A stretch of DNA of 64,000 bases, taken from the IMG/VR virus record IMGVR_UViG_3300028581_000018, positions 32,001-96,000 of that record. One strand, written 5' to 3'. This DNA comes from a virus. The notes below the pieces were generated by a model. It ran no database searches, was not told the origin of the DNA, and worked only from the letters and a program-made list of their open reading frames with translations. The stretch's first letter is position 1. Every line of letters starts with the position of its first letter. Positions 264 through 26,100 of the stretch are shown piece after piece. The translations under genes and the position numbers were made by a program.

Positions 264-3200
264 TTAAACTCTAAAACACGTCCCGTCTAGATCTAAACCT
301 ATTAGATCTTCGCTAACAAGAGTTTCACCAGCAATACCTTCTTGGTTTTCAATAATCAAATCCATTACTCCAAATTTACTTGACCCGGGCACCGGTAAGT
401 TAAATCTCTTATAAAGTTCACCATATAAGTACTCTGCAATAACTTTAGATCCCGCAATTTGTGGAGTGTTCTGTTTTAATATGTCATTTATCAAAAGAGA
501 CATATCCATTACAACAGCATTTCTAGGATTGCTCAAAATCTCTTCAATTTGAGATAACTGCTCATTTATACGTTTCTTAGCATCTTCAATGCTGGGAGTG
601 GTACCTTGAACTACAGGACTAGGTTGAGTAGTGCGTTGTTGAGAGGTTAATTTTGCAGGTGCCGTGGGCATACCTGGTGTTAGGTCTGCAGCTCTTCTGA
701 ATGTAAGAGTAATAGTATAATTTTCTATAACAGTACCATTAGGTAAAGTAATAGGTGGAAACTTCTGATCTCTTTTTACGCCTTTAGGTGTGTCATGAGC
801 TAGTTCAAATCTACCTTTACCATCCATACCAAAAGTATAAATAGTTCCATTTTGAGTAGGTATTTCTTTTCTAGAATCTGATCTAAAAGATGGTGAACCA
901 GGATTATTTTTATCCTCATAAATTCCAATTCCACTATTATTACCTATAGTATATACTACAACTGGATAATTTCTAGCACTCAAACTTTCTGTGGTATCTC
1001 TATGTGTTGCTATGTTCTGACCAGGTAAATAAATATTACCAATTACAGCATCATAGTTAGACATATCTATACCTAGAGTATTCTGAATCTCCTCAATAAT
1101 AGGTTGTAGATTAGATACAGGAGCTAGCGGATTACCATTTTGATCAACTGTATCATATACATAGTTATCTTTTGCCTTAGCATCTGTAGTAGCTAATCCA
1201 GCATTTGCATAGCTCTTATTATTAAGAGGTGCTTTAGCTGTACTTTTTCTAGTCCAACGTAGTCCATACATGAACATGTCATTAGCTGTACCAGAAGCAT
1301 TTTCTTTATAAGCTTGTGCTCTAATCTGTGGTTGGATAATATCTATAAAATCTTGAGTCTTATCAACAGATGGTTTAGTTTCTGCTACTACTACACCATA
1401 AGGTTCTGATACTACTTGCTGATTAGTACTTACAGGAGCTTGGGTGGGTTGAGTAGTAGTTCTTAATTGTTCAACTACTTCAGCTAATGCTGTAGGATGC
1501 ATACCTTGACCTCTAGCTGCAGACTTACCTGCATACAACAATGTAGCACCATCTAGTTTACCTTGATTAATTTGATTTAAAATCCATTCTCTTTGTTTTT
1601 CATTTACATCTTGAAGCAAAGTATCCCTTAATTCCATTTCCTTGCCTGTAGTAGCCACAGAATACTCCATATAATCACTTATAGGTTCATCAACTCCTAA
1701 TAACCAATCTTTATAAGCTCTTACTGCTTCACTAATACCGGCAACTTTTATAGTACCTCCATAACCAGCCTCACTAAAAGGATTACCAAAATGCTCATTA
1801 GGTTTAGCAGCTTCAGTGCGCATAGTATTAACCAACTTTGGATTATTTTTATCATAAACTTCCGCAGTTTTTAAATCACCTTTCCATTCTCTTGATGTAT
1901 CTATTGTAGGTTTAACACTAGTAGATGGTTGAGTAGTTTCTTTTACTTTAATTCTTGAAGTAGCACCTGTATGATAAACAGCAAACTTAGCACCTATTTC
2001 TTGCAAATAATCAATAAACTGAGAATCTACATTAGGCATGTCTCCTACTACAAACTCCATATTAAAATCATCATGATAAAACTTTATCATATCTTTAGTT
2101 TCTTGAAGTAAAGGTTTACCTTTTAAGGAACCATTTCTTGCAAGCATGACTGCTTTACCAGGGTCTGCCAGGTTTTTAGTACTTCTAGCAACTGTCTGTT
2201 CTTTTGTACCTTTTTGTTCTATTATACTTCCTGTTTTTAAAGAAGTTAAAGAAGAACTTGGATTAGTATTAGATACTTCAACAACAAAACTATCAGCAAC
2301 TGCTCTCATTGCTTTATCTTTACCATCACCTTCAGGAGTACCTTTACCAGTATTTTCAAAATCTCCTTTATATCCTTGGAATCCTCCAATACTAGTAGAT
2401 GGTTGAGTAGTGCGTTGTACACTAGAAATACCAGCATTAGCAAGCATCTCTTTAATCTTAGGTAAATTTTCTCTAGTATAATCTTTTCTTACTGTACCTT
2501 GTCTACCAAGATTTACATTTTCTGAAGGTATTACAAGTTTAATATTAGGACTAGCTTGTACTGTTTTAATAAGCAATGGTAAAATTTCTTCTATAGAACC
2601 TTCACCATGACCTAAACCCGCTAAAGGAAGTAAATAAGTTTTAGTTGGGTTTTCTTTAGAAACTTTAATCAAACTTCTTAAACTTTCTTTAAGTAACTCC
2701 ATGTTATTATTCATAGACATGTCATCACTCCATTTTTTCTTAACAGGTAACTGTACTACATCATCAGTAGCTTTAAAATTACCTTCACCTTGTTTAACCA
2801 AACCTTTAGCTTTAGCTGCTTGAGCAAGACCAGCACCATGTACACCACCTAAATTAGTAGTAATAACTGGGATACCAGGTAATGCAAAAATATCACCTTC
2901 TAATACTTTATCATTACTTACAGGAGCTTTGGTGGATTGAGTAGGTTGACCACCTTCTATAAAACCATCACCTACTTCTTTAAAACCAATACTAATTGGA
3001 AGATACTTGGCACGGGTAGTAGTATTTCTTAAATATGGAGACCTTGCTGCTTCAGTTTTATCTAGAGTGGTTGGATATACTACATATACCCCACCCGTTT
3101 GATCTTGCTTAATAACAAGGTCGTAGTAATCATATGGCTTAGAATAACCATATTGTTCGTTGGTAAAGAGCAGATTTCTAAAGTTTTTAGATGGTACATA

Positions 3201-6200
3201 ATTTGATCGTATTGTCTCCCCGCCAGGTAATCTATAACTAAATGCACCAGGAACAAGCTCGCTTCGGTCAATTTTTACAGGTGCCAAGCTGTATTGTCTA
3301 ACAGGAACTGTTGTTTTTCTAGTTTGACCAGAAATAAAACCTTCAGCAAAGTTCAATAATGATTGTTCTGAAAAATTAAAACCTGAAATAGCATCTTGAA
3401 TTGTAGCGTTTACTTCAGACAAATCAACTAGGTTTACTAAATTAGAAACATTTTTACTAAAACCATTTTGTAAAAATGCAATCTGGGGCAGCATAGTAAA
3501 TACATAGTTTATAAGCTTAATATTACTATCTGACAAGTTTGGCATTCTGTTTTTTACCGCCGTAAAATCTTTTAGTTGTTTTAACTGAGAATGGTATGAC
3601 GTTGCAGTAATCTCATCAATAGATTTTCCTATAAAGTCTAATATTACATATCCTGGATATTTTTTAGAATTAGTAAGAAAATAAGATAATACAGGAAACT
3701 GCTCTGTTAGTTCTTCTGAAAAATCTTTCTTTAAAATGTTTCTATAGAACACATTTGCAAATGATGATCCAGGATCTTGAAATAACTTATAGAGATTAAA
3801 GCTGTTAATATACGCCCTGTTTTCTTTTTGAACATCTGTACTATTTGGTTGAGTAAGTTCAACAATCGCGCGCTCTATCAAGAACCTAGTATACTCATGT
3901 ATTGTTGGGAACTCCTTGTTGCGAAAATCATTAGATAAGCTTTCATACTTTCTTTGTATCTCACTAGCACTTATATAGATTTTATCTTTAGTGAGGTAAA
4001 CACCTTTTTTTAAATAATCTACATACTGAACAGGTACTGTTTCTGATACACCAAATCCTTTGTAAGAATCAGATACACCAAGTCTAAAACCACGAACAGC
4101 ATTTTGGTATAATGCTAGAACAAGTTCATCTCTAAATGCAGCATCTAACAACTCCGTGCCGGTAGCTTTATTTGATGTTTGGCTATTTGATAATCTTCTA
4201 TAACCTTCTTGTAAAGAGTTAAACTCAGTGTTATCCGTTTCAATTTTACCACTAAGTTTATTTATAAAGTTATCAATGCGCGCATCAAACCTAAAAGGTA
4301 ATACTGATTTTGTTAAGGCTATAGAAAAGTCTCCAATAAAGAAGCTACCAATCATAGACTTTTCAGAGTTTTGAATAGCGTCAACTAAAGATCTATCAAT
4401 ACGACCATCGTAAAGCAGCTCATTTAATGATGCTTCACGTTCTCTGGTTGATAGATAAGAGTTTTCTCTTGTGGTGTCTACATTTGTTGCCCGGCTAAAC
4501 TTTGTAAATGCTTCAGATATATTTGATATCTCAATAAAATGTCTTAAAACTTTTTCTTGATACTCTTTATCTACTTTAGTAGGTATAAGTTGATCTTTAA
4601 GATCATTTAGTTGAAACTCTTCTTCATTATTTAATGAGTTTAATATGATTACATTCTTATTTTTATTGTTTAAAAGTATTTTATAAGCCTCACTTGCACC
4701 TCTTTCTTTCTTTAATGCTATGAACCTTCTAACAAGTGGTTGTGATACAAAGTAAACAGCATGTTCAACTGGTACTCCTGCCATTAACATATACATTAAT
4801 ACAGGAGTAATCTCTTTGTTACCTTGTATATAGAAGATCCATGGGTTTGCGCCAACGTCAACCCAACCATTAATCATCTGACTAAAAATATCAGATATTC
4901 TTACAAGCGGTGCTTTTTTATCTGTTCTATAACTATAAGTGTTATGTAAAGATATGTTACCCTCTTTTGTTACATTTTTTGGCAACAGCATCCTTATTGG
5001 TACAGTATAATCCTCCTTATTATTTCCACTACCTGTGGATATAACATATTCTTTTGGACTAACACCTTTCAAACTATTCAATAGAATATTATAGGTGGTC
5101 ATAATTGCACCAATACCTAAAGCATCCATGGCTGTCATGTATGCTTCATACTTAGACAAGTTGTAATCAGACTCAAATAATCTAGTAGGGCTTATTACAC
5201 CAGTAGATTCTCCAGAAAAATTTAATAATGGATCATAAGTCTGTGTGAGCCTTTTTAATTTATCAGCAAGATCATCAAAGATATCTGTGCTGTTAGGTGT
5301 TATTAATGACTCATAGTTTTGAGGACTTAATATAATTTCAAGAGATGTTTCTAGTAAATCTGTTTGTAGGGCGCCGACATAATTGTTCTCAACATCTAAT
5401 ACATAAATAATCTCTTTTAGATCTTCAATACTTTCTTCTATTTCTTTATTTAACTGATTTTTATCTTGAAAAGCATTTTTTAGTTCTTTATCTAAGTTAC
5501 CTGATTCATCTTTGAATCTATCAAATTCTTTTATTTGATCAAATAACCTTTTACTAAACTTTTCTAAGATACTCCTAGATGTGTCTTTAGTTAAAATCTT
5601 AGAGGATATGCGAAGAGCTTTAATTATATCCCCGTCAGTATAATCTGGTTTAGAAAGTACTTTTTGTAATGGACTTGGTAAAAATTGAAGCTGTCCGTTT
5701 TCACGATTATCATTAATTATTTTATTAATTTCTTCAATAATAAGCTTTCTACGAACTTTAGCATACTCGAGATTGCGTATGATATTAGAGATTGTCTCTT
5801 TGTTAACTTTCTTATCTGCTTTAAGATCTTTAATTAACATTTTAACTCTTTCTATAACATCTTTCTTATCAAGATTATTTTCTTTTTCAAGTCTTGATAG
5901 TTCATCTAAAAGATCTTGTCTTGTTTTATACTTCTTAGCAGATATTATCTTACCATTTTTATTTATTCTAGGAAATAGTGATGGTAGTTTATCAAAGTCA
6001 AAGTCACCACCAGATTTACCAACAATCTCTGAAGGCAACACAATAATGTTACCCGTGCCAATTGGCAAAAACTCATATACTTCTAATGCATCAATTGAAC
6101 CTTGACCCTGCACAGGTATCCTTACACCAAGAATACTAATTGCCTGGCGGTTGTCATCTTGATGTAACCATTTATCATTTTTGATTAACTGGTTTAGCTT

Positions 6201-9200
6201 AACCCGGCTAGCCTCAATATCAAGTACTCTCTTTTTTGTACCATCTTCTTCTTCAACGATATCATATACAGCAATTATATTACCATTAAGATCTTTACGC
6301 TGAAAAAGATTTATGAAGTCTCCATGTAAGGTAATAGCTACTTTAGCAGCTTGAATCTTTTTAGGATTGTATTTATAAAAGGGTAAAAACTCATTAGTAC
6401 CTAACCATTTCTTTCTTTCACTCTCATTAGCTTTTCTCCAAAATGATCCAGGTACTTGTACCAGTCCTTCACCATATGACTTTTGCTTTATAAGGCGCCG
6501 GCTGATTGTAGAAAACATGATTGCTTCTATAGTCTGGGCATTAGGTAAAGCTGATAAATCATTAGTTAGATTACCATTAGCATCTACAGAAATCTGTTTT
6601 ACTATATGCTCTGGTAAATTTTTCTTTCTCAGTTGAGTTTGTAAAAAAGCAGCAAGTCTTTCTACTGGGCCAGAGTATGTATTACCTTCTTTTACCCAAC
6701 CTATTTCATCTAAGAAATCTTTTTCAAGATTTTTAGTAACCTCATCTACAAGTCTTAAATAGTCTTTTTCAAGTTCTTTTTTGTCCTCTATAATTATACC
6801 ATTTAAGTACAAGTTCTCAACGATAAGCTTCCTCATCTGCGTAGCAAATGTTTGACCCGCTTTCCAAACATTAGTATTGCTGGTAACCTCTTTTAAGTAC
6901 GCTAAGTTTACAGGGTTAACGGTAAACTCTGTAGACATATTTATCTTATTACGATCACCATTCTCGTAAAGATCAGTAGGATTACCAAGATTAGAAATCT
7001 TTGAACCACTAGGATAAGTAATATAATCTATATTATTGATAATCATAAGATTATGAATATCATTTAATAAAGAATCTTCATGTACATTTGGTAGTAATGG
7101 TGATATACTAAACTTGTGTAATGCAGTAATAGGGGCATCTGTCTGAAGATTACCGTACATTTGTAACTTGTAAGTTGGAAAAAATACTTTAGCGTCATTA
7201 GCATCAAGCTTTTCACCATTTACAATCTTTTGGTATAGTGCTTCTTGTTCTGGTAACCAGTTGTTTTGTGCAATTTTAAGGTGTCGGTATGTATCAATAG
7301 TCATATAAGCATGACCATCACCAATTTTCATTTCTTTACCATAAGCTTTCTCAAGAGATTCAACAACTTCTTGTCTAACAGCTTTTTGACTTCTCTTTTC
7401 TCTCGCGGCTTTAAGTTTAACAACAGCTTCAATCATTTCATTAAGACTAACAGATCTTAAGCCTGTATCTTCCTGAATAATTGCTGTATTTAAAATACTA
7501 GTTGTCTCTTTTACAACCCCATCTGGTCTAAGTTCAGACATTACCTTTTCACTGTAAACTTTGGGGTATGCTTTATTAATAGCTTGTAGTACCCATTCAT
7601 CAGAAATAAAACCTGGGCCACCAGAACCAGCACCAGCATTATACTTTGTACCAGCTTCTTTTTTGTGATTGTATTGAGCCATATCACCATAAAAGAAATT
7701 GTTCATTTCAAAACGGTGAATAAAGTAGTTTACTGTATATGCTCTAACTAACGTTTTGTTTAACTCAGCATCCTTTACATTTAAATTAAACTTTCTTAGT
7801 TCTGTTTCATCTACAGGAACAAGTGGAGCTGATTGATCGTATCTATTCTGATTTTGCTTATTAACTTCTGTAAAGTAATATTTTAGATCTTCTTTAATAG
7901 CATCAATGTTTTTCCTTACAGATTCATCAGATGTTAAACCCTTCTCAATGTCTGCGTATAGAGCACCTTTTGTCTTAGGACTTAATATATCATCAAATGC
8001 TGTAAACTTTTCACCGGCGCCATCTTTATTCAACGCTTGGTTTTGTTTGTATGTCTCATTTGTCTTAAACAAAACAATTCTTTCATACTCCGCTTTGATA
8101 TATCTTTGAAGTAATCTAAGAGCATCATCTGGTAAAAGAGTATTCTCAAATAGTTTAGGTTGTAAGTATAATTCAGCAGAACCATTTTTATCTGTTATCA
8201 TAGGAACATAAACACTAGATTTACTTTCGTGAACTAGTGTTGGCATATATCCGTGTAGGATAAAAGAATAAAAGTCAGTTATGAACTTTTGATTTATTGT
8301 TAAATCTGTAGCTGAACTAGCATTTTCTATGTTATCATATTCATCAAGCTGTTGATAACCAACATGAAACATTAACTCTAACTTATTAAGATTGTTTCTG
8401 GATTCATCTTCGTAAAAAAGTTTTTCTCGTATGATACTGTACTTGAAAAATGGATTTAGTTCTTCAGAAAACTCTACGTTAAAGCCAGATGCATCTAATA
8501 AGTTAATGCTCTCATTTAGATACATGATCTTTCGAGTCATTGAGTTATGCAGAGAAATACTACTTACCAGATCACCATTAGCATTTAGAATAATGCTATC
8601 GTTAAAAAGAGGATTATACTTAATCTCTATCTGGGCAATTTTTCTAAGAATAGTTCTTTGATTACTTATTTTAGAATCAGTACTTCTCTCAATAAATGCT
8701 TGTAGAGGATTACTTTTTAGTTTTTTGTTATTAGGATTAATGCGAATATCATCGAGCATTTTATTAGCAGCAGATAATAACTCATTAAGAGTAATTCCAC
8801 TTTTTTGTGCTTGAATTACTTCTTTAGTAGTTTTTGTAAGCTGTACACCGAGCCTTTCAAAAAACTCAAAAGCTTCCTCAAAAGTGTTTACTCTGTTTGG
8901 TAAGTTGTTTGTGTTTAATACTGCTTCGTTATTAACGCGGGGTGCCACGTTAACAAAAATATTCTGCCATCTTCTATAAACATTTCCTACACTATTAGTA
9001 GCTTTACCAGAAGTGAAAGTTTGTTTAGTATCTGTTGTATTTTCATCAACCAGAACGTTACTTTTTGTATTAATTAATGCTTCTACTGATGCTTTATCAA
9101 AGGCTGAATGAAAATTTAATAGCACCTCTAACAAAATCCTTACTCTATTTCCTGTAATATCTTGAGCTAAAGCTCTATTGGTTGTATGCTCTTTAGGTAA

Positions 9201-12200
9201 CAGTTCATATATTACTTTTAATACAGGAAACGCATCACTAGACTTTTTTATAGCATCAAGCATCTCAGTATAAGTCTTAACGCCAACAACTGTTTTTTGT
9301 AATGCATTAAGCGTTGGGCCAAATTCTTGGTTTATAGGAAACCCTAGTTTGTTCTTTATATAAACAAACTTTTCCTCACCTATACTAAAATCATAAGATT
9401 TGCTGTTAATCTCTTTTTGTGTAGCTTTTTTAAAACTAGGAATTATTCTAAGAATTGTTGTAAGCTCTTTTGGTAAATAGTCTTTCATAGGTCGACTATT
9501 TGCTCTCTTATCTCCTCCTTGTTGTAATAACTCAGAATTGTTTGATGTATCTGCGTCAACGTCAATATCAATATCTTCTTCAGCAACTACTAAATTAGTA
9601 ATAGCTGCAGATGAAGTTTGAGCATATGCTGCTAAAATACCATTTGTCTTTTTGTTATTCGCAAATGATTCAATGTCTCCAAAGTTCTCAATAACTATCT
9701 CTAGCAGTCTCTTTTGGTCTAGTAAGTTGTTTGGTTTTTCTTCAAGACTATCAAGCTCCTCATTAATATCAGCAAGTTTATTCTTAAAGGTATTTAGAAT
9801 ACCTTCAAAAATTGTTGTACGTCCTTTTGATGAATACAAGAAAGCTAAGTTGTTAGAGCGAGTTCCGTCTAGTTCTGTGTTAATTAAAGCTTTAGCTACA
9901 AGCCCATCAATAGATTGTCTAATAAGATCAAACTCTTCATCTTCAATGTTCAAAGGTGTTTTATCATCTTTTACACTCTTAGCACGATTCAAGACATCAA
10001 ACATTGAGTTATTAATGTTTGGTTGAAGATTTAGAAGCTTACCAAAGTAAAGTTTCTCAAATGCTTCAGCCACTGCCGGTACACTCATTGCATCTACATA
10101 GACAGCATTTCTATTAGTGCCCCCAAACAAAGCCTTTAAAAGATTCCAGATCTTTCTAAAGATTGTATTTTTTGCAGGAGAACCCTTCTCAGGATTTTGG
10201 AATCGAGCATAATCTCTAAACTGCTCGGCTAAATATTCTTCTATTTGAAAGAAAGAAGCATCGCTAAAACTTACTACCTCACCATTAACAGTTGTAAATA
10301 CACCGGGTTTTTTACGAACCTCTTTATATAGTTTTACTTTTTCTTCAGTGGTTAAGTATAGCTGAGTAAAACCGTGCCATGCTTCGTGGTAAATATCTAC
10401 AGAACTTGATCCTTTATAAAGGGTGATGCCTGATCTTGAAAATGTGGCCCAAGCATTACTATTAACAATACTAAGTAATCTGTTTAAAGGTATTACTTTT
10501 GAAAGGGGACTATTCGCCCACCATTTTTCAGCATCACGAATTTGTTCTTCTGTGACTGCGTTTTCTAGATTTGTTGCCCTAAACAAATCGTCAAAACTTA
10601 AATTAAAAAGATCAGGGTTACCAGGATTTAAATTCTCATTGTCTTGCTCTTCTACAGTTTTTTCTTCTGCAGGTGAAGTTTCTTGTTCAACCTCTGGAGT
10701 TTTTTGTAGAGTATCTAAGTCTGGTAATGTATATCTGAAAAGAGGATTTAATGCAACAATTTGACCTTCTGCATTTGGTTTACTAGCACGTACTTTAATA
10801 TTGTTGTATAACCAGCTATAATAGTTAGAATTGTCCTTAACTTTCAGTTCTCCATTTTCAACTTTAATATTTGTATATATACCATTTGTAAAGTTTGTAA
10901 GATTAATATTTACAAGAATGTTTTGTTTAAACACCTCCTCAAGTGCAGACTTAAGATTTTCATCTCCTATCTTGTATTGAGTTTCCTTACCATCGGCATC
11001 TTTTATAGTAACTGTTTCTGCAGATTTATTATATATAACTTGAGGACGATCTGTAGCCTTAACAGTAGTAAGAAGATTATTTCCAATCTTTACAAAAAAC
11101 GTTTCAAGATACTTATATCTAGTATCAGAGCTTATATTAATATTGTCAACTAGTATATTTTGTTCAGAAAGAAGCATTATTATAGCTTCTGTTAAACCAG
11201 GAACATCTTTAAAATAAGGCTTAACTGCCTCAACATGTTCATCTGATAAGTTTCTAACAAGATTAGTGATCTTTAAAAACTTATCAAAAATACCCTTTCG
11301 ACGAATCCAATCTTCTGAATCTATTTGTTCATCACTTGCATCTATACGTATATCTCTTAGAAGACCTGGTGTATTATCATAGTTAGAACTACCTATTGAT
11401 GTAATAGGCATTGTTACTTGAGTATTGTTTTCTGTTACATACTTTTTAGTTTCTTCTAGTCGCTTAATAAGTTCTAATTGAGCAGCAATTGCTTCTCGGC
11501 TTTTTAGTGTAGCAATTTTATCTTTATTTCTAGTAAAGTTATATATCACACCCCCAGTGCCATCTTCTGTAATGTTTCCTTCATTATCAAACAAATAAGG
11601 TACACCCTTAGCATCTGTTACAATTAAAATTGTAAGGTTTTCTCTCCTATTGTAAAGATTTGATCTTTGAAATCTATTCATTGACGCAAAGTCTCCACTA
11701 CCCAAATATTCTTTATCTAGCTCTATATCTAAATTTTGGTGAGCCATCATTGTATAGTACAATGGCTTACCATTATACATCAAAGGTTGACCAGGAACCG
11801 TTTCTTCATTATTTTTCTGTTGTTTAGAAACTTTCTCTTTGAATTTATAAATTCTATTTTTTACAGGATCTTCTTCATCACGAAGAGTTTGAATTGGTAC
11901 AGTTACTTTTTCTTGTTCAATTTGAAAAGCTTGTTCTCGGGTATCTGTGTTTGGACTACTAGAATAAGTAAAAACCGGTTCTGAAGTATTAAGTTCTATT
12001 TTACGTTTGTTATCTTCTGTTGCTTCGTATTGTCCTAGTACAATTCTTTGTGAATCTATAATCTCTAGAATAGTTTGTAATGAACCAGTTATTGTAGTAA
12101 TTAACTTTTTAACCTCTTCAATATCTTTGAATGTTTCAATTGAAATACTCAGTTTATCTGAGTAATTAATTCTTGCAAGATATCTTTTAACTTCAGGTAC

Positions 12201-12413
12201 AAAATATGATAAACCTGATATTAACTCAGGTACCATCATGGCATATGCTAATGCTGTATTCTCATCATTATTTTTACGAACTAATGAATATATTTTTTGA
12301 GCAAACGGTACCACAGAAAAATTTTTCTGATCTGCAGTAATCATTTTCTGAATGTCTTTTAATAGAAGAGCACTTACTCGTTGTATTTGCTCTTTTGGTA
12401 TAGCACAGTTCAT
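264..12413 (-). CDS. Virion RNA polymerase polyprotein (crAss-type double-psi beta-barrel RNAP) with N-proximal zincin domain and C-terminal Macro, SLOG, DUF4326-like and AlkB-like domains
   Basis: 4049 aa. RIPVQG...SGGDFDFDK catalytic signature (DFDFD at 5991-6005) as in phi14:2 gp66-type RNAPs. HEAWH...EEYLAE zincin motif (10374-10388). Accessory domains at about 690-2915. Confidence 0.92.
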   Translation of the reverse strand: MNCAIPKEQIQRVSALLLKDIQKMITADQKNFSVVPFAQKIYSLVRKNNDENTALAYAMMVPELISGLSYFVPEVKRYLARINYSDKLSISIETFKDIEEVKKLITTITGSLQTILEIIDSQRIVLGQYEATEDNKRKIELNTSEPVFTYSSSPNTDTREQAFQIEQEKVTVPIQTLRDEEDPVKNRIYKFKEKVSKQQKNNEETVPGQPLMYNGKPLYYTMMAHQNLDIELDKEYLGSGDFASMNRFQRSNLYNRRENLTILIVTDAKGVPYLFDNEGNITEDGTGGVIYNFTRNKDKIATLKSREAIAAQLELIKRLEETKKYVTENNTQVTMPITSIGSSNYDNTPGLLRDIRIDASDEQIDSEDWIRRKGIFDKFLKITNLVRNLSDEHVEAVKPYFKDVPGLTEAIIMLLSEQNILVDNINISSDTRYKYLETFFVKIGNNLLTTVKATDRPQVIYNKSAETVTIKDADGKETQYKIGDENLKSALEEVFKQNILVNINLTNFTNGIYTNIKVENGELKVKDNSNYYSWLYNNIKVRASKPNAEGQIVALNPLFRYTLPDLDTLQKTPEVEQETSPAEEKTVEEQDNENLNPGNPDLFNLSFDDLFRATNLENAVTEEQIRDAEKWWANSPLSKVIPLNRLLSIVNSNAWATFSRSGITLYKGSSSVDIYHEAWHGFTQLYLTTEEKVKLYKEVRKKPGVFTTVNGEVVSFSDASFFQIEEYLAEQFRDYARFQNPEKGSPAKNTIFRKIWNLLKALFGGTNRNAVYVDAMSVPAVAEAFEKLYFGKLLNLQPNINNSMFDVLNRAKSVKDDKTPLNIEDEEFDLIRQSIDGLVAKALINTELDGTRSNNLAFLYSSKGRTTIFEGILNTFKNKLADINEELDSLEEKPNNLLDQKRLLEIVIENFGDIESFANNKKTNGILAAYAQTSSAAITNLVVAEEDIDIDVDADTSNNSELLQQGGDKRANSRPMKDYLPKELTTILRIIPSFKKATQKEINSKSYDFSIGEEKFVYIKNKLGFPINQEFGPTLNALQKTVVGVKTYTEMLDAIKKSSDAFPVLKVIYELLPKEHTTNRALAQDITGNRVRILLEVLLNFHSAFDKASVEALINTKSNVLVDENTTDTKQTFTSGKATNSVGNVYRRWQNIFVNVAPRVNNEAVLNTNNLPNRVNTFEEAFEFFERLGVQLTKTTKEVIQAQKSGITLNELLSAANKMLDDIRINPNNKKLKSNPLQAFIERSTDSKISNQRTILRKIAQIEIKYNPLFNDSIILNANGDLVSSISLHNSMTRKIMYLNESINLLDASGFNVEFSEELNPFFKYSIIREKLFYEDESRNNLNKLELMFHVGYQQLDEYDNIENASSATDLTINQKFITDFYSFILHGYMPTLVHESKSSVYVPMITDKNGSAELYLQPKLFENTLLPDDALRLLQRYIKAEYERIVLFKTNETYKQNQALNKDGAGEKFTAFDDILSPKTKGALYADIEKGLTSDESVRKNIDAIKEDLKYYFTEVNKQNQNRYDQSAPLVPVDETELRKFNLNVKDAELNKTLVRAYTVNYFIHRFEMNNFFYGDMAQYNHKKEAGTKYNAGAGSGGPGFISDEWVLQAINKAYPKVYSEKVMSELRPDGVVKETTSILNTAIIQEDTGLRSVSLNEMIEAVVKLKAAREKRSQKAVRQEVVESLEKAYGKEMKIGDGHAYMTIDTYRHLKIAQNNWLPEQEALYQKIVNGEKLDANDAKVFFPTYKLQMYGNLQTDAPITALHKFSISPLLPNVHEDSLLNDIHNLMIINNIDYITYPSGSKISNLGNPTDLYENGDRNKINMSTEFTVNPVNLAYLKEVTSNTNVWKAGQTFATQMRKLIVENLYLNGIIIEDKKELEKDYLRLVDEVTKNLEKDFLDEIGWVKEGNTYSGPVERLAAFLQTQLRKKNLPEHIVKQISVDANGNLTNDLSALPNAQTIEAIMFSTISRRLIKQKSYGEGLVQVPGSFWRKANESERKKWLGTNEFLPFYKYNPKKIQAAKVAITLHGDFINLFQRKDLNGNIIAVYDIVEEEDGTKKRVLDIEASRVKLNQLIKNDKWLHQDDNRQAISILGVRIPVQGQGSIDALEVYEFLPIGTGNIIVLPSEIVGKSGGDFDFDKLPSLFPRINKNGKIISAKKYKTRQDLLDELSRLEKENNLDKKDVIERVKMLIKDLKADKKVNKETISNIIRNLEYAKVRRKLIIEEINKIINDNRENGQLQFLPSPLQKVLSKPDYTDGDIIKALRISSKILTKDTSRSILEKFSKRLFDQIKEFDRFKDESGNLDKELKNAFQDKNQLNKEIEESIEDLKEIIYVLDVENNYVGALQTDLLETSLEIILSPQNYESLITPNSTDIFDDLADKLKRLTQTYDPLLNFSGESTGVISPTRLFESDYNLSKYEAYMTAMDALGIGAIMTTYNILLNSLKGVSPKEYVISTGSGNNKEDYTVPIRMLLPKNVTKEGNISLHNTYSYRTDKKAPLVRISDIFSQMINGWVDVGANPWIFYIQGNKEITPVLMYMLMAGVPVEHAVYFVSQPLVRRFIALKKERGASEAYKILLNNKNKNVIILNSLNNEEEFQLNDLKDQLIPTKVDKEYQEKVLRHFIEISNISEAFTKFSRATNVDTTRENSYLSTREREASLNELLYDGRIDRSLVDAIQNSEKSMIGSFFIGDFSIALTKSVLPFRFDARIDNFINKLSGKIETDNTEFNSLQEGYRRLSNSQTSNKATGTELLDAAFRDELVLALYQNAVRGFRLGVSDSYKGFGVSETVPVQYVDYLKKGVYLTKDKIYISASEIQRKYESLSNDFRNKEFPTIHEYTRFLIERAIVELTQPNSTDVQKENRAYINSFNLYKLFQDPGSSFANVFYRNILKKDFSEELTEQFPVLSYFLTNSKKYPGYVILDFIGKSIDEITATSYHSQLKQLKDFTAVKNRMPNLSDSNIKLINYVFTMLPQIAFLQNGFSKNVSNLVNLVDLSEVNATIQDAISGFNFSEQSLLNFAEGFISGQTRKTTVPVRQYSLAPVKIDRSELVPGAFSYRLPGGETIRSNYVPSKNFRNLLFTNEQYGYSKPYDYYDLVIKQDQTGGVYVVYPTTLDKTEAARSPYLRNTTTRAKYLPISIGFKEVGDGFIEGGQPTQSTKAPVSNDKVLEGDIFALPGIPVITTNLGGVHGAGLAQAAKAKGLVKQGEGNFKATDDVVQLPVKKKWSDDMSMNNNMELLKESLRSLIKVSKENPTKTYLLPLAGLGHGEGSIEEILPLLIKTVQASPNIKLVIPSENVNLGRQGTVRKDYTRENLPKIKEMLANAGISSVQRTTQPSTSIGGFQGYKGDFENTGKGTPEGDGKDKAMRAVADSFVVEVSNTNPSSSLTSLKTGSIIEQKGTKEQTVARSTKNLADPGKAVMLARNGSLKGKPLLQETKDMIKFYHDDFNMEFVVGDMPNVDSQFIDYLQEIGAKFAVYHTGATSRIKVKETTQPSTSVKPTIDTSREWKGDLKTAEVYDKNNPKLVNTMRTEAAKPNEHFGNPFSEAGYGGTIKVAGISEAVRAYKDWLLGVDEPISDYMEYSVATTGKEMELRDTLLQDVNEKQREWILNQINQGKLDGATLLYAGKSAARGQGMHPTALAEVVEQLRTTTQPTQAPVSTNQQVVSEPYGVVVAETKPSVDKTQDFIDIIQPQIRAQAYKENASGTANDMFMYGLRWTRKSTAKAPLNNKSYANAGLATTDAKAKDNYVYDTVDQNGNPLAPVSNLQPIIEEIQNTLGIDMSNYDAVIGNIYLPGQNIATHRDTTESLSARNYPVVVYTIGNNSGIGIYEDKNNPGSPSFRSDSRKEIPTQNGTIYTFGMDGKGRFELAHDTPKGVKRDQKFPPITLPNGTVIENYTITLTFRRAADLTPGMPTAPAKLTSQQRTTQPSPVVQGTTPSIEDAKKRINEQLSQIEEILSNPRNAVVMDMSLLINDILKQNTPQIAGSKVIAEYLYGELYKRFNLPVPGSSKFGVMDLIIENQEGIAGETLVSEDLIGLDLDGTCFRV
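611..2944. repeat. Five dispersed linker repeats (core TTGAGTAG, encoding T/P-T-Q-P/S linkers) separating the vRNAP C-terminal domains
   Basis: 1917-1937 = 2391-2411 (21/21). 622-639 = 2401-2418 (18/18). 1428-1456 vs 2916-2944 (27/29). Confidence 0.85.
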
Positions 12414-12417
12414 ATGT

Positions 12418-15400
12418 TTAACACTTTGAATTATTACCTATATCGTCTTCTAGACTAGAATCATCTTGATCTAAAAAGGGATTTTCTTCACCAAATGTAG
12501 TTCTAGGTTCACTTTTAATAGCATCTAAGTTTTCATTGGTTAATTCCAGGTTTATCCGTTCTTCTTGAGATAGTACAACAGGTTCATCCTCAACACTTAA
12601 AAGTAGGTCAAATGAATTTTGAAAATCTTTCACACTCATTTTTTCTTTTACTGAAGGATTATTTACCAAAGATATCACTATTTCTCCTCTTGCCTCATTA
12701 TAAGATACAACTTTATAAGCAGTATCTACACTTTGCACATCACTTTTCCTAAAGAAATATGTGTTTTTTGATATGCTTTCTAGATCTGGTAGTAGGGCGA
12801 GCTCCGCGCGCTTTGCTTCAATAGCATCACTGAGCTCTTGATTAAGTGTAGAAGTAGGAAACTGGAATCTGAAATTAAAAGCTTCTTTTACAACACCTGA
12901 AAGCTGGCTTAAATTTGTAACAGCACCAAGCATTCCTAGTATGTTTTGACGTTGTTCTGATGCTCGATTAAAGATTGTAGCATCTGACACGCGCATCCTA
13001 CCAACAACACCATTAGTTTCTGCGTCAACTAGATTAACTACATCTTCATATATTACATCAAAAGCTTCACCCGGTACAACAGATTCTTTTTGAAGACTTA
13101 GCTTTATGATGTCTCCCTGGTTTAAAAGAATGTTTGCGTCTAAGAATACCCCAACCCGTAACGTTTTACCATTTACTTTTAGAATTAAACTTCTAGAACT
13201 TCCATATTCAAAGTATTCGCCGTAGAGTTCTTGTCCAGAATTTAAAAGCTCTCTTACAAGTTTTGCTTTAGCGTCAACACGGTCACTAGGTCTTGAGTTA
13301 TCAATCTTAGTTAGTACAGCTTCTTGTTCTGCTGTAAGACTAACTGTGTTCTCATTAGTAAATGTTGTAGTTTCTCCACCGGTATCTTCACTTTCTAAAA
13401 CAGCTATTTCTTCATCAAATTTCTTTTTTAACTCATTTAATATATCTACTCTTCCTTGATCTTTAGCTGTTTGCATTGCTTTGAAAAATGCTTCTGCTAC
13501 AATTTGACGATCCTCAGATTGTGTATTTTTATCTGGATGTACGAGTTTAGCATATTCTTTAAACAATCGTGCAGCTTCTGCTTTATTTGTTTTTACTACC
13601 TCACCCTTAAGAGTTTTATTGATAGCATCAAACATTTGAGATCCTAAGTTATCAGGTATAAACTCACCTCTAACAACTTTACCTGGTTGATTTTCACTAA
13701 AATCAAATAATGATTCGGATCCAAATACTTTTGATATAGTATCATTAATTCTCTTTATTATATCCCCTTTATCAGAAACAGTAGTACCTTCTAAAGCAGC
13801 TAGTTCTGCATCATATTTAGCATTGATTTCTTTATTTCTTTTTTGAACTTCTGGCATCCATACATTGTCAGGTAAAGAAGCTCTATTATTTTTAGCATAT
13901 TCAGCGACCTGTTCTCTTTCTTCTTGTCTTCTTCTTTCTATAGCAGTAACCTCCTTAAACAATGCTGGATATCTAGTAACTACACTTCCTGCTACTACAG
14001 GCTCTTTAGGATTCTCTAACAAGAATTTTGCAAGTCTTGTTAGCTCTTTAAATTCAGCAGGAGTTATCTTTTGTTTTTCATCTTCTAACGCATCTGCTCC
14101 TTCACCCTCTCCAGTTTCTTCTCCTGATGGCTCTTCTTCTTCTGCTCCTGTTTCTTCTTCTGTTACCTCTTTTAGTCTATTACCTAGTGCTTCATCTACA
14201 ATCTCTTCTAATGTCATTTCTTTCTTGGTTGTATCACTAGGAACATCGCTTGTGAATACTACATGTTTTTCATTGACGTTGATGGTTATAAAGGGCGCAT
14301 CCGCTGTGAGCTTTTGAGTACCTACTTTTGCTGGAGTTTTAATAGACGATATTTTTGCGTCGCCATCATACTCTACCTCAAGAGGTAATATCCCCAGGTT
14401 TATTTTGTCAAGACCAGTAATTTCCTGTAAGATCTTTTTGTAAATAATCTGTTGTAGAGCATTTTTTATATATGTTCTATATGCATCCGCTCCTGTAGAA
14501 TATTTTGACCATTTAGATTTCTTACCGGTTTTTACATCTACAATCCACCACTCTGAGTTTTCGTCAATGAATAGTAAATCCATTTGCCCAGCAACCTTTG
14601 TATTATCAGAATAGATTACATCTGTATTAGAGGCTATTTCTCCAACCGTTTGTTTAAAAGGCTCTAGTATCTTTTGTAGTTGTTTAGCCGCAGCTTCTGA
14701 TAATAAAGACGTTTCTGGAATACTTGTAGCACCAATATCTGCTACAAAATCTCTTACCGCCTCATCAACCTCGTTACCAACATCTCTTGATGCATCATAT
14801 AAACTATTCATTATCTCTTCAGATAATGTATCTAAATAGTTAGTTTGTACCTTAGCCGTTATTGTACTTGATGCTAATACCCCAAGAAAATCAGGCAATC
14901 TTTGAATTGTACGATCTAGTATTTTACCAGCTTTTTCAGAACTAACTTTACCACCAGTTATACTAACAAGCTCTCTTTGCATATGCGCGCGCACATCTGT
15001 AGCACGATCACCTTTTAACGCATTAGCTAATTGTGTAAGGTATAGTGTTACCTCAGCATTTGGCGCTAAACCAAAAGGCTCTTGTCTAAAATACTTTTCT
15101 AGTATTTTTTCAACTATTAAACTCACCCTAGCATACTCTTCTTCTTTAATGATATATGCTTCAGATGATTTTACTGGAGTACCATCAGGATTTTTCTCTA
15201 CACTAGCCATTCTTTGTCTAATAGAATCTAGAACTTTTTCAATTTCTTGTTCTATTAAAAAGATGTCTTTGTTTGTATAGAGAGCATACTGTTTTATAAA
15301 AGCATCCAGCGCGTTTATATCATTTGCTAAAGCTGTGTATTCACGAGTTCTAGTTGTAAGTGTAGCTAGTTTAGATTTTAAAGATTTTAGCAAACTCCTC

Positions 15401-16155
15401 AAATACAATAAAGACATATCTGTAGATATCTCTTCGCCTGTTGTACCAAGTTTTATATTTGCTGGTTTTGTTTTAGCAGGGGTTCCTGTAGATGGCACCG
15501 TGGCAAGTGCTGTGTTGTATTGGCTTATAATACTTACCGCTGTGCTTGTAGATAAAAACTTACTTATATCAGTGTATAACGTTGGATTAGCTCTTTGAGC
15601 ATTTGCAAATGCTGTATCTAATTTAGTTTTTAATTCTCTTAGTGCTTGATAAGTAGCATCAGTATCAGGTAATAACTCAAAATCTTCATAAGTAATATCA
15701 CCAATTGATATTTCTTCATTAGGCACCAGCTTAGTTGTCTTTTCTTCTTCCTCTTCTTCTTCCGCTGGAGTAGGGGTAATAGGTGTTGCACTTGTAGATG
15801 TAGTGCTTAATGTAGTACCTGGTATTTTAAATCCAATATACAAGAACACTTTTTCTAATCCTTCTACAGGACTAGTAAACTTATTGATCATATCTACTAA
15901 CGCCGTTTCACGTATTGGCGTAGCATCAAGCACTGACTTAAATACAGGTATACTTCTACCTTTACCAATAATAGCAAATGCTGTTTGTACAAATAATGCT
16001 GCCCTACTAACACTCCCCGTGCTAGTAGCAACAAGATTGAACAGATCATTCATGTAAACGTCTATGTCAAACGTAGCAGGATCCGCATTAATATGCGCAT
16101 ATACATCATTTGCTAAATCAGAAATCTGCTCTTTAGTTAATGCACAAGTTATCAT
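12418..16155 (-). CDS. Giant ejected/cargo protein with PD-(D/E)XK nuclease and J-domain
   Basis: 1245 aa. VAGQMDLLFID...VDVKTG...LQQIIY nuclease motifs. KEYAKLVHPDKN J-domain (HPD at 13531-13539). ATGA overlap with the upstream gene. Confidence 0.8.
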   Translation of the reverse strand: MITCALTKEQISDLANDVYAHINADPATFDIDVYMNDLFNLVATSTGSVSRAALFVQTAFAIIGKGRSIPVFKSVLDATPIRETALVDMINKFTSPVEGLEKVFLYIGFKIPGTTLSTTSTSATPITPTPAEEEEEEEKTTKLVPNEEISIGDITYEDFELLPDTDATYQALRELKTKLDTAFANAQRANPTLYTDISKFLSTSTAVSIISQYNTALATVPSTGTPAKTKPANIKLGTTGEEISTDMSLLYLRSLLKSLKSKLATLTTRTREYTALANDINALDAFIKQYALYTNKDIFLIEQEIEKVLDSIRQRMASVEKNPDGTPVKSSEAYIIKEEEYARVSLIVEKILEKYFRQEPFGLAPNAEVTLYLTQLANALKGDRATDVRAHMQRELVSITGGKVSSEKAGKILDRTIQRLPDFLGVLASSTITAKVQTNYLDTLSEEIMNSLYDASRDVGNEVDEAVRDFVADIGATSIPETSLLSEAAAKQLQKILEPFKQTVGEIASNTDVIYSDNTKVAGQMDLLFIDENSEWWIVDVKTGKKSKWSKYSTGADAYRTYIKNALQQIIYKKILQEITGLDKINLGILPLEVEYDGDAKISSIKTPAKVGTQKLTADAPFITINVNEKHVVFTSDVPSDTTKKEMTLEEIVDEALGNRLKEVTEEETGAEEEEPSGEETGEGEGADALEDEKQKITPAEFKELTRLAKFLLENPKEPVVAGSVVTRYPALFKEVTAIERRRQEEREQVAEYAKNNRASLPDNVWMPEVQKRNKEINAKYDAELAALEGTTVSDKGDIIKRINDTISKVFGSESLFDFSENQPGKVVRGEFIPDNLGSQMFDAINKTLKGEVVKTNKAEAARLFKEYAKLVHPDKNTQSEDRQIVAEAFFKAMQTAKDQGRVDILNELKKKFDEEIAVLESEDTGGETTTFTNENTVSLTAEQEAVLTKIDNSRPSDRVDAKAKLVRELLNSGQELYGEYFEYGSSRSLILKVNGKTLRVGVFLDANILLNQGDIIKLSLQKESVVPGEAFDVIYEDVVNLVDAETNGVVGRMRVSDATIFNRASEQRQNILGMLGAVTNLSQLSGVVKEAFNFRFQFPTSTLNQELSDAIEAKRAELALLPDLESISKNTYFFRKSDVQSVDTAYKVVSYNEARGEIVISLVNNPSVKEKMSVKDFQNSFDLLLSVEDEPVVLSQEERINLELTNENLDAIKSEPRTTFGEENPFLDQDDSSLEDDIGNNSKC

Positions 16156-22545: not shown

Positions 22546-23181
22546 TTAGATATATTTAAATGTTGTTTTATTTATTCTTTTTCCTAATAGGATTCTTGAA
22601 AGAGAACCTTTGGTCATTCCAATTAACTCACAAACTTCAGCTAATGAGCTATATATAACGCCTGTTGTAATATCTATAATTTTTTTTCCTCTTTTTTCCC
22701 TATGTAGCTTTGTATAGTTTATACCTTCTCTTGATCTTTTTAAAAGTTCTTTATGTTGACAAGAAAGTGTCCTTTGTTTTAAAGCTTCAATACAGGCTTG
22801 AGATGGTTTTTTGCCTTTATTTGCTTGTCTTAATTTTTCTATTGTTGCTTCTGAATGTATAGAGCAACCATTTGGATTTGTAGGTTTTATATTATAACCA
22901 GTTGATCTGTCCAAACAATTTAATTCATTAACCCAATAGTGTTCTCTAGCATGTAAATTACTGATGTCACATTTTTCAATCATCTCGAAAATAAAATTTT
23001 CTTCACCGTACTTAGTCCATGCTCTTTGCAAATAACTATTATTATGTTTGTCTTTTCTTAAATCATAGAGATGTCCATTTATTCTAGTTCTTACATTGGA
23101 AGCACAACCAATATATATTTTACCGTTAGTTATACTAGTAATTTTATATATTCCAGGAGTTGATTGTATATAAGTAGCCAT
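22546..23181 (-). CDS. Free-standing GIY-YIG homing endonuclease with NUMOD3/NUMOD1-like DNA-binding modules
   Basis: GIYKIT...KIYIG...R...LQRAWTKYGEENF...E...GYN catalytic domain. HSEATIEKLRQANKG (NUMOD3-like). C-terminal IYSSLAEVCELIG HTH. Confidence 0.92.
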   Translation of the reverse strand: MATYIQSTPGIYKITSITNGKIYIGCASNVRTRINGHLYDLRKDKHNNSYLQRAWTKYGEENFIFEMIEKCDISNLHAREHYWVNELNCLDRSTGYNIKPTNPNGCSIHSEATIEKLRQANKGKKPSQACIEALKQRTLSCQHKELLKRSREGINYTKLHREKRGKKIIDITTGVIYSSLAEVCELIGMTKGSLSRILLGKRINKTTFKYI

Positions 23182-23186
23182 ATCTT

Positions 23187-26100
23187 TTAACTAAATAAAC
23201 CTTTGTATTGTGTATAATAATTAGGATCTACTCCTGTATTTTGAGTCTTTGACTTGTACTCACGATCATATTGTTCTTTTGCAAATTGTGCAGCTTTATT
23301 ATCATCAACACCCATTTGTGACTTAATTTTTTCTTTTCTTTTTGCAATCTCATCCCAGTCATATTCTGCAGAAGCAGTTTGTGAACCGTCAAATGGTTTA
23401 GATACACCTGTTGGTAATACAAAACCACTACTTGGATCAACTTGATATTGTGGATTTAAAACATTTAACGCTTGCGTTTTCCCCCGGTTGGTAAGTGCAT
23501 TAGTGTAAGCTTGTGTATACTGCTGCCGTGCTTGATTTTTAGCATTCTCAAATTGTTGATTAGCTACTGTAGTTTTATCAAATATATTTGTAGCCCTATC
23601 AGCAGCCGCTTTTCTACCAGCATCTATTAAACCAACATTTATTTGGTTGGCTTGGTTATAGATATTTTGGTTAGCGTTATTAACAGATGATAATGTATCA
23701 GCTATACTTTTAGCAGCGTTGCCTTGTAAATCAGACATTCTAGCAGAAAAAGCTTGTGGCCCACTATATGAAGTTAAACCTTGTACAGCTTGTCCAGCAG
23801 ATTCATTAATTGCAGCAATTTGACGATCCGGGTCTATATATGATGCAAACATTTGTGGTGGTTCATATGGTGCTACAAAAGGTAACTGTTTGTTTATGTT
23901 ATACAAGTTACCAAAGGTAGCAAGATTAAGAACTTCATCCTGCGCCCACCATGGAGTAAATCCTGGTACACCAGGAATATTTTGATTTGTTTGCGTAGGT
24001 TGATCTGTTTCAGTTTCAGTAGTTGTACTTGGTTCTGTAAACTCTTCTTCAGCATATTTACCAGGATCATATCCAGCTAATTGACCACGAGTAGTATTAG
24101 CAAGTACATTATCAGCTCTAGAAATAGAGCCTGCCTTATCTCCTGTAATTTTATCATTAAACTTACCAGCTTGTTGTATGCTGTAAGGCTTAAGTTTTTC
24201 TTTCAGTGCTGGAGGTGCGTCTTTATCATCACGATACTTTAATAGATCTCTATAAGCAATGTAAGATAACTGTTGACCAATACCTGAAGTTCCAGATGGT
24301 GGTGTAATACCAATCTGTTTAAGTTTTGTATTTATATCTGCACCTGTTTCACCTGCTTTACTAACATCATAACCATGTGCCTGTAAAGCAAGATTAGCTT
24401 TTTCAAATTCTAAAAACTGTTGAACTATTTCATCAGGAGAAAGATTCCGCAGCTCATTTTTTTGAGCTTCTGTAATTTTTTCACCAAAATAGTCATTGTT
24501 GTCCAAACCCTTTTTAAACTGTTCAACAAATGCATCTTTAACATCAGTGTCACTAAATGTTTCTTCTATAGCAGCATATTGTTGAGCAAATCCTTTATTA
24601 TTATTAAAGATCTTCGTAAAATCATTAGACTGTTCATCAAGTGTAAATTGTCTTGGTTGAGATGTAACCTTTCTTAATTTACCATCTGCTGTTTCATAAA
24701 TATCACCAACATTTAAATTATTCTTATCAAAACCAGCATCTTCTTCTTTAGGATAGTTTGATTTTTTACCAGCATTATCAGATGCTGTAACTGGCGTAGT
24801 TTCAGTTTTAGTAGTTGTAGGAGAAGGAGTAGCTTCAGAGGATGTTTGATTAGTTGCAGATTGAGTAGGTGTAGTGGATGGTTGAGTAGTTGCAGGTTGC
24901 GTTTGAGTTACTGGAGTTGCAGTTGCAGGAGTATACTCAGATAAAGTTTTATCAAATGCAGCACCTTGATTTTTTTTGTTGTATGCGTCTTTTGCAAATG
25001 TAGGTTCGTAGTTATACTGTTGTGGGTTCTCAGTATAAAATTCGCGTGGTGTTTCAGTTGTCTTAGGAGCATTGTTATTAAAGTCAAAATTATTCCACAT
25101 CAAAGATCTAGGAACAAAATTATCTTTAAAGTTCTTAACATATACATCAGGTTCAGCATCTAAATTTTTTCCTGTTTGATATGAACCATTAATTTTAGCT
25201 TCATCAATAGAAGCAAAACTATTAGGGTTAGTTAAAAAAGAATTGTAATCAAAGTTTGGTACATCTTTAACTGTACCACCCATAGTAGAAGGATCTACAC
25301 TTCCACTAGCAACTAAAACTAAATCTTTAATTGAGCGACCAGTATTAAATTTATAATCAACAAGCCTTACTTGCATTTCAGGTTTTAAAGAATTATAATC
25401 TACACCTAACTTGGTAAGCTCATCAACTGTTTTTTGTATATGTTCTTTCATTTTAGTCTTATTACTACCAGTCCAGTTATCATCTGAATACTTACTTTGA
25501 TAAGACGTATTACCTTGTGTGGCTGCTTTACCACCTTTCATGCCAGCATCTCTTTCATGCTTAAGTATATACTTTGTCCAGTTATCATTCCAGCTATTAA
25601 ATGCTGTATCAATTGGATCTCCACTATTAGCTTGTGCTTGGCTATTAGCTGCATTTTGTAATGCTACTGCGTCATTTCCACGATATGTGCCAGATTGAGC
25701 ATCTGACTTTAAGATATTTATTAGACCTTCTTGATTAGAATCAAGATTAACTGCATTACCTGTTTGAAAAATAGGTAATGAAATACGTACACGAGATCTT
25801 GATTGTCCACCTTCACGCATATATGGCATGCCACCATATTCCATTACAGGGTTATAGTAAGATCCTCCATACATCATCATCATCTCTGGTGATACTCCTT
25901 GCATCATTTGTGGATCAACAGGTTGTTGATCTGGAGCCATCATTTGTTGAGCTTCTGGTTCTTCTTGAATTGGCCCTTGATTATATGACTCTGTTGGTAC
26001 ATCTTGTATGTTTTCTTCACCAGGTTGAGTTTGTGGTAAAAGCATTTCTGGTTTAATACCTTTGGACTCTAGGTAAGGCATCGCAATTACAGGTATCCCC

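Follow-up and report, generated by a model that had tools for sequence, protein, structure and literature searches.

Conserved delivery scaffolds whose payloads are swapped by recombination beside a short motif are known from Rhs proteins, CdiA polymorphic toxins and MARTX arrays, and MARTX toxins carry several effectors in one polypeptide. Short conserved crossover points also flank variable segments in phages, as in the T-even tail-fibre 'His-box' and the boundary sequences of lambdoid modules, and integrons, which need an integrase and structured attC sites (attC/attI), move whole genes. Gp66 of Cellulophaga phage phi14:2 is reportedly a crAss-like virion RNA polymerase (Drobysheva et al. 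2021; PDB 6VR4). Polyvalent proteins of phages and conjugative elements were described by Iyer, Burroughs, Anand, de Souza and Aravind (2017; PMC5512222), who count the N4 virion polymerase among them and briefly raise recombinational variability. Here, a stretch of 64,000 nucleotides (hereafter the window; positions 32,001 to 96,000 of the IMG/VR virus record IMGVR_UViG_3300028581_000018) was analysed, which is part of a 109-kb record that is 91% complete; the large open reading frames (ORFs) of the window lie on the minus strand. The product of its giant ORF is, by homology, a crAss-like virion RNA polymerase of the phi14:2 gp66 type, and this gene contains a hypervariable in-frame array of domain cassettes, which are very probably exchanged between co-infecting phages by recombination at a short DNA box.

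The locus shares with phi14:2 gp66 a homologous polymerase core and the DxDxD catalytic motif, but it encodes 4049 residues, compared to 2194 in the PDB chain, including a subterminal array of four cassettes and, after it, a conserved C-terminal cap. As in the Rhs, CdiA and MARTX systems, a conserved scaffold carries variable payload domains next to a short demarcating motif; those systems, however, are bacterial secreted toxins with motifs conserved as peptides, whereas the delimiter here is conserved as DNA, and the orphan cassettes used by Rhs and CdiA were not seen, all 80 boxes being located in long ORFs. The 'His-box' and the lambdoid boundaries are likewise short conserved flanking sequences that serve as crossover points for swaps between phages, although they concern host-range adhesins or whole genes, while the present locus has multiple enzyme domains inside a polymerase gene and one box found in hundreds of contigs. 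Integrons resemble the present system in that their independent cassettes come from a common pool and are arranged in arrays, with a recognisable DNA site at the border of each, yet an integrase was not found here, and what is joined, in frame, are protein domains. Like the polyvalent proteins, the predicted product is a very large multidomain protein, which would be delivered with the invading DNA and in which an RNA polymerase is found together with several small enzyme domains and a zincin-like HExxH motif. With four cassettes and the polymerase, it has at least two effector-type domains per phage polypeptide, and the cassette pool includes cpYpsA and ART-PolyVal, which are hallmark domains of polyvalent proteins. 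In contrast, a nucleotide-conserved in-frame junction box with mapped breakpoints lies outside that concept, and text searches of PMC5512222 returned no mention of crAss, linkers or AlkB.

The array was found to consist of four single-domain cassettes (D1 to D4) between the polymerase core and a conserved C-terminal domain of 116 amino acids (aa), named D5. Five in-frame T/Q/P/S linkers separate these segments, with TQ(P/S) at residues 3158, 3336, 3494, 3654, and 3929 (Table 1). An earlier note on this DNA had placed four bounded domains of 450-750 bp at the C-terminus of the polymerase; the four bounded domains were recovered, but the cassettes measure 468-819 bp, and the array is actually subterminal, since the native conserved D5 (267-617) comes after it and the linkers are five. 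The repeats listed in that note were all exact as written: 1917-1937 is identical to 2391-2411 (21/21), 622-639 to 2401-2418 (18/18), and 1428-1456 agrees with 2916-2944 at 27 of 29 positions, where both differences (CCC/TCC and CAA/AAA) are non-synonymous. The core TTGAGTAG is present on the minus strand only, in one reading frame at all five linkers and once within D4 (852). When up to two mismatches were allowed, a 19-mer of the repeat was found three times in the window, compared to zero times in 100 dinucleotide shuffles. Conditioned on identical peptides and on the codon usage of the window, the seven identical codons of linkers 2 and 3 had a probability of P = 0.0014, and the seven of linkers 1 and 4, which include the rare ACC, one of P = 0.0017. 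Linkers 2 and 5 have the rare CGC in common, but this pair alone was not significant (P = 0.11).

Analysis of the linker in other phages revealed a box of 21-26 nt (NCT ACT CAA YCA TCT ACT AGT GTT RAA) that encodes (T)TQ(P/S)STSV; in its local variants, the encoded peptides are TQxxxAPVS and TQPSPVV. Copies of the exact 21-mer, ACTCAAYCATCTACTAGTGTT, number 80 in 62 IMG/VR contigs, one contig having five, and it was also found in at least 119 metagenome stretches, marine assemblies among them, with zero occurrences in 596 Gb of bacterial and archaeal genomes. All 80 copies are in frame as TQ(P/S)STSV within long ORFs, the longest exceeding 4000 codons, and a recognisable polymerase core is present in at least 32 of the 62 IMG/VR box loci. 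Anchored alignment of 107 non-redundant junctions showed that conservation is confined to a sharply bounded block, -1 to +24, and that the flanks are uninformative. In the loci fetched by similarity to D3, the linker is codon-for-codon ACT ACT CAA CCA TCT ACT AGT GTT AAA, with D3 copies that are only 59-68% identical at the protein level.

The synonymous-site comparison proposed in the earlier note showed that third codon positions of the box are the least variable. Among 110 sites with up to four mismatches, the differences were distributed as 72/26/16 over codon positions 1/2/3, and as 36/26/16 without the common C/T (P/S) polymorphism; about 8 of the 114 differences were synonymous, and the peptide changes were mostly P/S, V/I, T/A, S/N, and Q/K. 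In addition, 46 occurrences of the peptide TQ[PS]STSV were counted regardless of their DNA, and canonical codons were used in 41 of them (7 of the 7 protein-fetched and 34 of the 39 additional DNA-fetched occurrences), against approximately 0.3% expected from codon usage, so that the identity of the linkers is not explained by codon bias. The five non-canonical occurrences were each one base off. The linker is conserved at the nucleotide level, in hundreds of environmental phage contigs.

Comparison of the sequences on either side of the box showed that 103 junctions represent 83 upstream and 59 downstream clusters in 101 distinct combinations. One downstream cassette type was joined to 12 different upstream partners, and the D3 type was found after the box with 7 upstream partners. 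In 63 junction pairs, one 120-nt flank was at least 80% identical (many at 95-100%), while the other was below 45%, which corresponds to background; both flanks were similar in one junction pair only. The identity in these pairs ends within the box or at its edge, with crossovers both before and after position 7, the site of the C/T polymorphism. All 48 distances from one box to the next are divisible by three (median, 472 nt) and thus indicate that the exchanged units are single domains. Recombination crossovers at the box are strongly supported by these data.

The array is also variable among the close relatives of the polymerase, which were identified using the last 508 core residues as the query. 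Over this region, P0026, P0156, P0157-162, and P0163 are 95-96% identical to the window, and P0164 is 87% identical. The core end GDGFIEGG(Q)PT and the D5 start (T)QPSPVVQG are common to all the relatives. D5 itself is 97% identical in P0026 and, judged by eye, almost identical in the remaining ones. Between these same two points, the window and its close relatives carry six different arrays of approximately 150 to 780 residues. The array of P0026 contains a different AlkB-like cassette (31% identical to D4), with other modules behind it; only one cassette, of about 150 residues, is present in P0157-162; a D2-type cassette is accompanied by another one in P0163; and the arrays of P0156 and P0164 are different again from the window and from the other relatives. 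The divergence starts and stops within linkers 1 and 5, and starts right after GGQPT. Moreover, in P0003, D1 (82%) is fused straight to D4 (80%) without D2-D3, and thus the window has D2-D3 inserted at a linker relative to P0003. The homologs therefore have no fixed domain set, as five relatives or groups of relatives carry five other arrays, and the breakpoints lie in the linkers, at the protein level in the close relatives and at the DNA level for D4 and the 63 junction pairs, which come from other phages. The in-frame gain and loss of domains at the linkers, which the earlier note had suggested, is supported by the D1-D4 fusion of P0003 as well as by the arrays of the close relatives.

Evidence of cassette transfer was also obtained for distantly related phages. 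With the 892-residue tail as the query, an exhaustive HMMER search yielded 620 protein matches, mostly to single cassettes, whose ends coincide with linkers and in which cassette order and position vary, even near the N-terminus of giant proteins. The closest relatives of D1-D4 (82-93% identical) are found in different proteins, with polymerase cores that are approximately 24-40% identical or give no match; for D1, D2, and D3, the best relatives (82-89%; 89% in the case of D2) belong to three different giant proteins, with cores 29-40% identical or unmatched. At the DNA level, D4 is 90.7% identical over 792 bp (651-1442 of the window) to the IMG/VR locus L001, in which the remaining polymerase is 23-36% identical at the amino acid level and the neighbouring cassettes are unrelated. 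Similarly, nucleotide similarity of D1 to five other viral contigs is restricted to 2431-2910. In several loci and proteins (L030, L040, L049; P0098, P0103, P0120, P0131, and P0137), box-delimited cassettes precede the polymerase core and lie close to the N-terminus of the giant ORF.

Base composition was in accordance with a foreign origin of the cassettes, which the earlier note had proposed from a rough estimate that the array has about a third of the CpG density of the polymerase core. The measured values were 4.28 CpG/kb (observed/expected ratio, o/e, 0.15) for the array and 13.1/kb (o/e 0.51) for the core, and the CpG content of the array is the lowest of all 2.3-kb intervals in the stretch. 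When the expectation was conditioned on the protein sequence and the codon usage of the window, D1-D4 had 10 CpG against 45.8 +/- 6.1 expected, which shows that the deficit is not an amino acid effect, whereas the polymerase core had 124 against 183 expected, and D5 had 7 against 6.4. The box-bearing phages are AT-rich (30% GC), with a CpG o/e of 0.25 that drops to 0.18 near boxes, compared to 35% GC and a CpG o/e of 0.52 in this genome. The observed and expected CpG numbers thus support that D1-D4 are compositionally foreign, matching the CpG-poor box-bearing phages, and that D5 is native. Along the IMG/VR loci L023-L084, the CpG deficit was most pronounced up to 0.5 kb from a box (o/e 0.18) and eased at greater distances (0.25-0.27), indicating that the cassette pool is more CpG-poor than the genomes that carry it.

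Under recombination at the box, co-infecting phages would exchange, insert, and delete cassettes by crossover within the box, which would act as a minimal homology segment for homologous exchange. The box is about as long as the shortest homology on which bacterial and phage recombination systems act, and for this reason we infer that the recombination is homology-directed. Exchange at the repeats agrees with what the earlier note had called a microhomology-driven process, but a box of 21-26 nt represents short homology and not microhomology. An intact fusion protein would result from every crossover, since the box lies in frame and its T/Q/P/S product is a flexible linker, and, because D5 is conserved, the array would have to change by double crossover instead of a simple C-terminal swap. 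The box would be kept intact because arrays that carry it keep gaining cassettes, and each exchange would bring fresh box copies.

Other explanations of the repeats were considered. Low-complexity linkers in an AT-rich genome with biased codons could resemble each other by chance or through codon bias, as the P value of 0.11 for linkers 2 and 5 would allow, or could derive from an old internal duplication, with no exchange between phages; this is hardly credible, since the repeats were present in 0 of 100 shuffles, the codon P values were about 0.001 for two linker pairs, the exact 21-mer is present in 62 IMG/VR contigs and absent from cellular genomes, the cassettes are mutually unrelated and each has close relatives in other phages, and the array content differs among close relatives. 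A chance or codon-bias origin was therefore rejected on the shuffles, the codon tests, the 21-mer distribution, and the array differences. It is also conceivable, although quite improbable in our judgement, that the linker is conserved as a functional peptide, for example as a cleavage site at which the HExxH module releases the cassettes, in which case the DNA identity would be a by-product and the recombination incidental. The presence of the same short peptide at most junctions and the invariance of HExxH in all aligned homologs agree with such a role, as does the processing of polyvalent proteins by zincin-like peptidases that is proposed in PMC5512222. Selection on the peptide, however, predicts the opposite codon-position pattern to that observed, in which box variation is mostly non-synonymous and third codon positions are the least variable, and it does not account for canonical codons in 41 of 46 identical peptides where 0.3% was expected. 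Cleavage at the linker peptide may co-exist with a role as DNA, and would leave the conservation at synonymous sites unexplained.

The sharp limits of the 21-26 nt element and its nucleotide conservation across very divergent phages would also fit the target of a dedicated site-specific recombinase or homing-type endonuclease, that is, an integron-like or homing-driven cassette system, and the 109-kb genome does contain four GIY-YIG ORFs, one of them within the cargo-gene block, and one HNH (HNH_3) ORF. These enzymes may stimulate recombination, but they are tied to the arrays and to the box only by their presence in the same genome, and no enzyme was consistently linked to the arrays. In addition, no match to tyrosine or serine recombinases (PF00589, PF00239) was obtained in the 109-kb, 91% complete genome, and crossovers occur at several positions of the box, which argues for homologous exchange rather than a fixed cut-and-join reaction. 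A dedicated enzyme is therefore regarded as distinctly unlikely. A broader proposal, which we consider doubtful, is that the box is a DNA-selected, dedicated recombination signal of an ORF-internal, integron-like domain-cassette system common to a large group of aquatic crAss-like phages, possibly with a specific enzyme or processing site, that would draw on a community-wide effector pool.

Several points weigh against homologous exchange at the box as the source of the array. Besides the missing tyrosine and serine recombinases, RecT, ERF, and RecA families were not found in the 109-kb genome. Within the window, only linker 3 is the exact 21-mer and linker 2 has one mismatch, while the variants of linkers 1, 4, and 5 were absent from the fetched loci; the variant box CAAGCTCCTGTAAGT (QAPVS) was in no fetched locus and occurred only in proteins of this phage's own clade. 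The breakpoints in this clade are seen at the protein level only, and some D1 homologs are flanked by unrelated linkers, so that the box is not the sole route of transfer. Furthermore, second-order selection for exchangeability is expected on theoretical grounds to be weak, and the box may have a direct function as DNA, RNA, or peptide.

The coding content of the cassettes was examined by sequence and structure comparisons. D4 matched PF13532 (2OG-FeII_Oxy_2) with an E value of 4.8e-7 and 30.6 bits, against a curated cut-off of 31.2, and the HxD...H triad and the 2OG-binding arginine of this family are present (H3804-R-D3806, H3873, and R3906), with H3804 and R3906 nearly invariant. A box-flanked cassette of the same family in locus L060 reached 50.7 bits. 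For D1, the AlphaFold2 (AF2) model had a predicted local distance difference test score (pLDDT) of 76.7, and its top matches in VIA-align were macro domains (Z 8.5-6.8, where Z near 8 is borderline; approximately 130 residues; root-mean-square deviation 3.5-4.5), including alphavirus nsP3, PARP9/14, Af1521, DarG, and MACROD2. Foldseek gave weak support (E about 7e-3), and no Pfam macro match was obtained for D1; DUF7831 scored E 0.087 and phrog_335 'phosphatase' 5.8e-6. The model thus suggests a macro-like fold, borderline but consistent across many entries. D2 is possibly a SLOG-type domain, as its language-model neighbours were DprA/YAcAr/YpsA (0.81-0.83), which are weak leads only; the D2 portion of the model matched HAD-like chains at Z 5.4 in VIA-align, and no Pfam, PHROG, or PDB sequence match was found. 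D3 had no Pfam, PHROG, or PDB-profile match, its language-model neighbours were noise, and its AF2 model (pLDDT 42) was unusable; DUF4326, a candidate for D3, did not come up when ten D3-containing fragments were scanned with Pfam. Searching PDB sequences with profiles of D1, D2, and D3 returned nothing.

Box-flanked cassettes of other phages include cpYpsA, NADAR, DUF7831, and 2OG-FeII_Oxy_2 domains above Pfam cut-offs, as well as weak matches to ART-PolyVal and to the N-terminus of PIF1-type helicases. This repertoire matches that described for the polyvalent proteins in PMC5512222, which supports, short of proof, that the cassettes would be polyvalent-protein-type effectors entering the cell with the polymerase. 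By homology, a role in counter-defence is suggested for them.

The 'vRNAP' (virion RNA polymerase) label given to the gene in the earlier note holds, because a profile of nine polymerase homologs matched PDB 6VR4 (6vr4_A; E 3.4e-42, 146.5 bits) and the DxDxD motif is invariant. Single-sequence phmmer of the polymerase against the PDB gave no match, and Pfam and PHROGs applied to the whole 4049-aa protein left the polymerase core unrecognised. Homology and the place of the gene in a block of giant genes suggest that the polymerase is probably packaged and injected with the phage DNA. The acidic residues E725, E726, and E730 downstream of HExxH are also conserved among polymerase homologs; no Pfam or PHROG model matches the HExxH region, which may be a zincin-like processing peptidase module of the virion polymerase. 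Two cysteines, C3 (12405-12407) and C4046 (276-278), at a distance of three residues from the N-terminus and four from the C-terminus, respectively, do not vary among 16 polymerase homologs whose identity is otherwise about 23% per column. In INPHARED phage genomes, neither the tail nor the whole gene had a DNA or protein match, and scans of IMG/VR and JGI metagenomes with core-end protein patterns retrieved no relative. Next to the polymerase, a 1245-aa protein (12418-16155) is encoded, of which residues 454-583 have an exonuclease-type match (phrog_298, E 2.8e-10).

A further copy of the repeat, reported in the earlier note at 24872-24890, is located in a 50-residue low-complexity T/P/Q/S linker of a 1156-aa protein (23187-26657) of the cargo block. 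Parts 1-300 and 650-1100 of this protein are common to 120 homologs, while the middle module (approximately 300-650), which contains the domain that the earlier note had called lysozyme-like and ends at the T/P/Q/S linker, is present in only 5 of the 120; the linker is not conserved among those five homologs. The protein seems to be another cargo-block member into which a module was inserted, and the copy is suggestive as a candidate junction: its 18/19 match borders a variable module, but the match is partial. Between two giant cargo-block genes lies a GIY-YIG-type ORF of 211 aa (22546-23181, minus strand).

Table 1. Features of the polymerase gene, its cassette array and the partial box copy, in positions of the window.
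Feature	Position	Strand	Basis
Giant ORF, crAss-like virion RNA polymerase (predicted) with cassette array	264..12413	-	4049 aa; ORF list and profile match to 6VR4
HExxH motif (H676, E677, H680), zincin-like	10374..10388	-	Invariant in 16 divergent homologs
DxDxD catalytic motif (D2137, D2139, D2141)	5991..6005	-	Invariant in 16 divergent homologs
Linker 1, TQSTKAPVS variant of the box, at the left end of the variable array	2916..2944	-	27/29 to linker 4
Cassette D1, macro-like fold (modelled)	2409..2915	-	AF2 model and VIA-align
Linker 2, TTQPSTSI, one mismatch to 21-mer	2388..2411	-	Repeat comparison
Cassette D2, possible SLOG-type domain	1938..2387	-	Language-model neighbours only
Linker 3, TTQPSTSV, exact copy of pan-phage 21-nt box	1914..1937	-	Repeat comparison
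Cassette D3, no family or fold match	1457..1913	-	Bounded by linkers 3 and 4
Linker 4, variant box TQPTQAPVS	1428..1456	-	D4 homology with L001 begins here
Cassette D4, predicted AlkB-like 2OG-Fe(II) dioxygenase	640..1427	-	PF13532 match, motif residues
Linker 5, QRTTQPSPV, right edge of variable array	618..639	-	18/18 to 2401-2418
D5, conserved C-terminal domain ending DGTCFRV, outside swappable set	267..617	-	97% identical in P0026
Partial box copy (TTQPST)	24872..24890	-	18/19 to 1919-1937

Searches of the literature on the crAss-like virion polymerase, domain shuffling, and polyvalent proteins retrieved no paper describing such an in-frame, nucleotide-conserved junction box with mapped breakpoints. 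Polyvalent injected proteins and the crAss-like virion polymerase were already known. How polyvalent domain sets diversify had been left open, and the junction box provides a readable trace of the mechanism. The 21-mer is a simple sequence handle with which the environmental pool of probable first-minute effectors can be catalogued, and several members of this pool represent families of ADP-ribose or nucleic-acid modification with relevance to anti-defence. The array also offers a model for changing the injected toolkit without breaking an essential polymerase gene, and a natural design rule for in-frame domain arrays.

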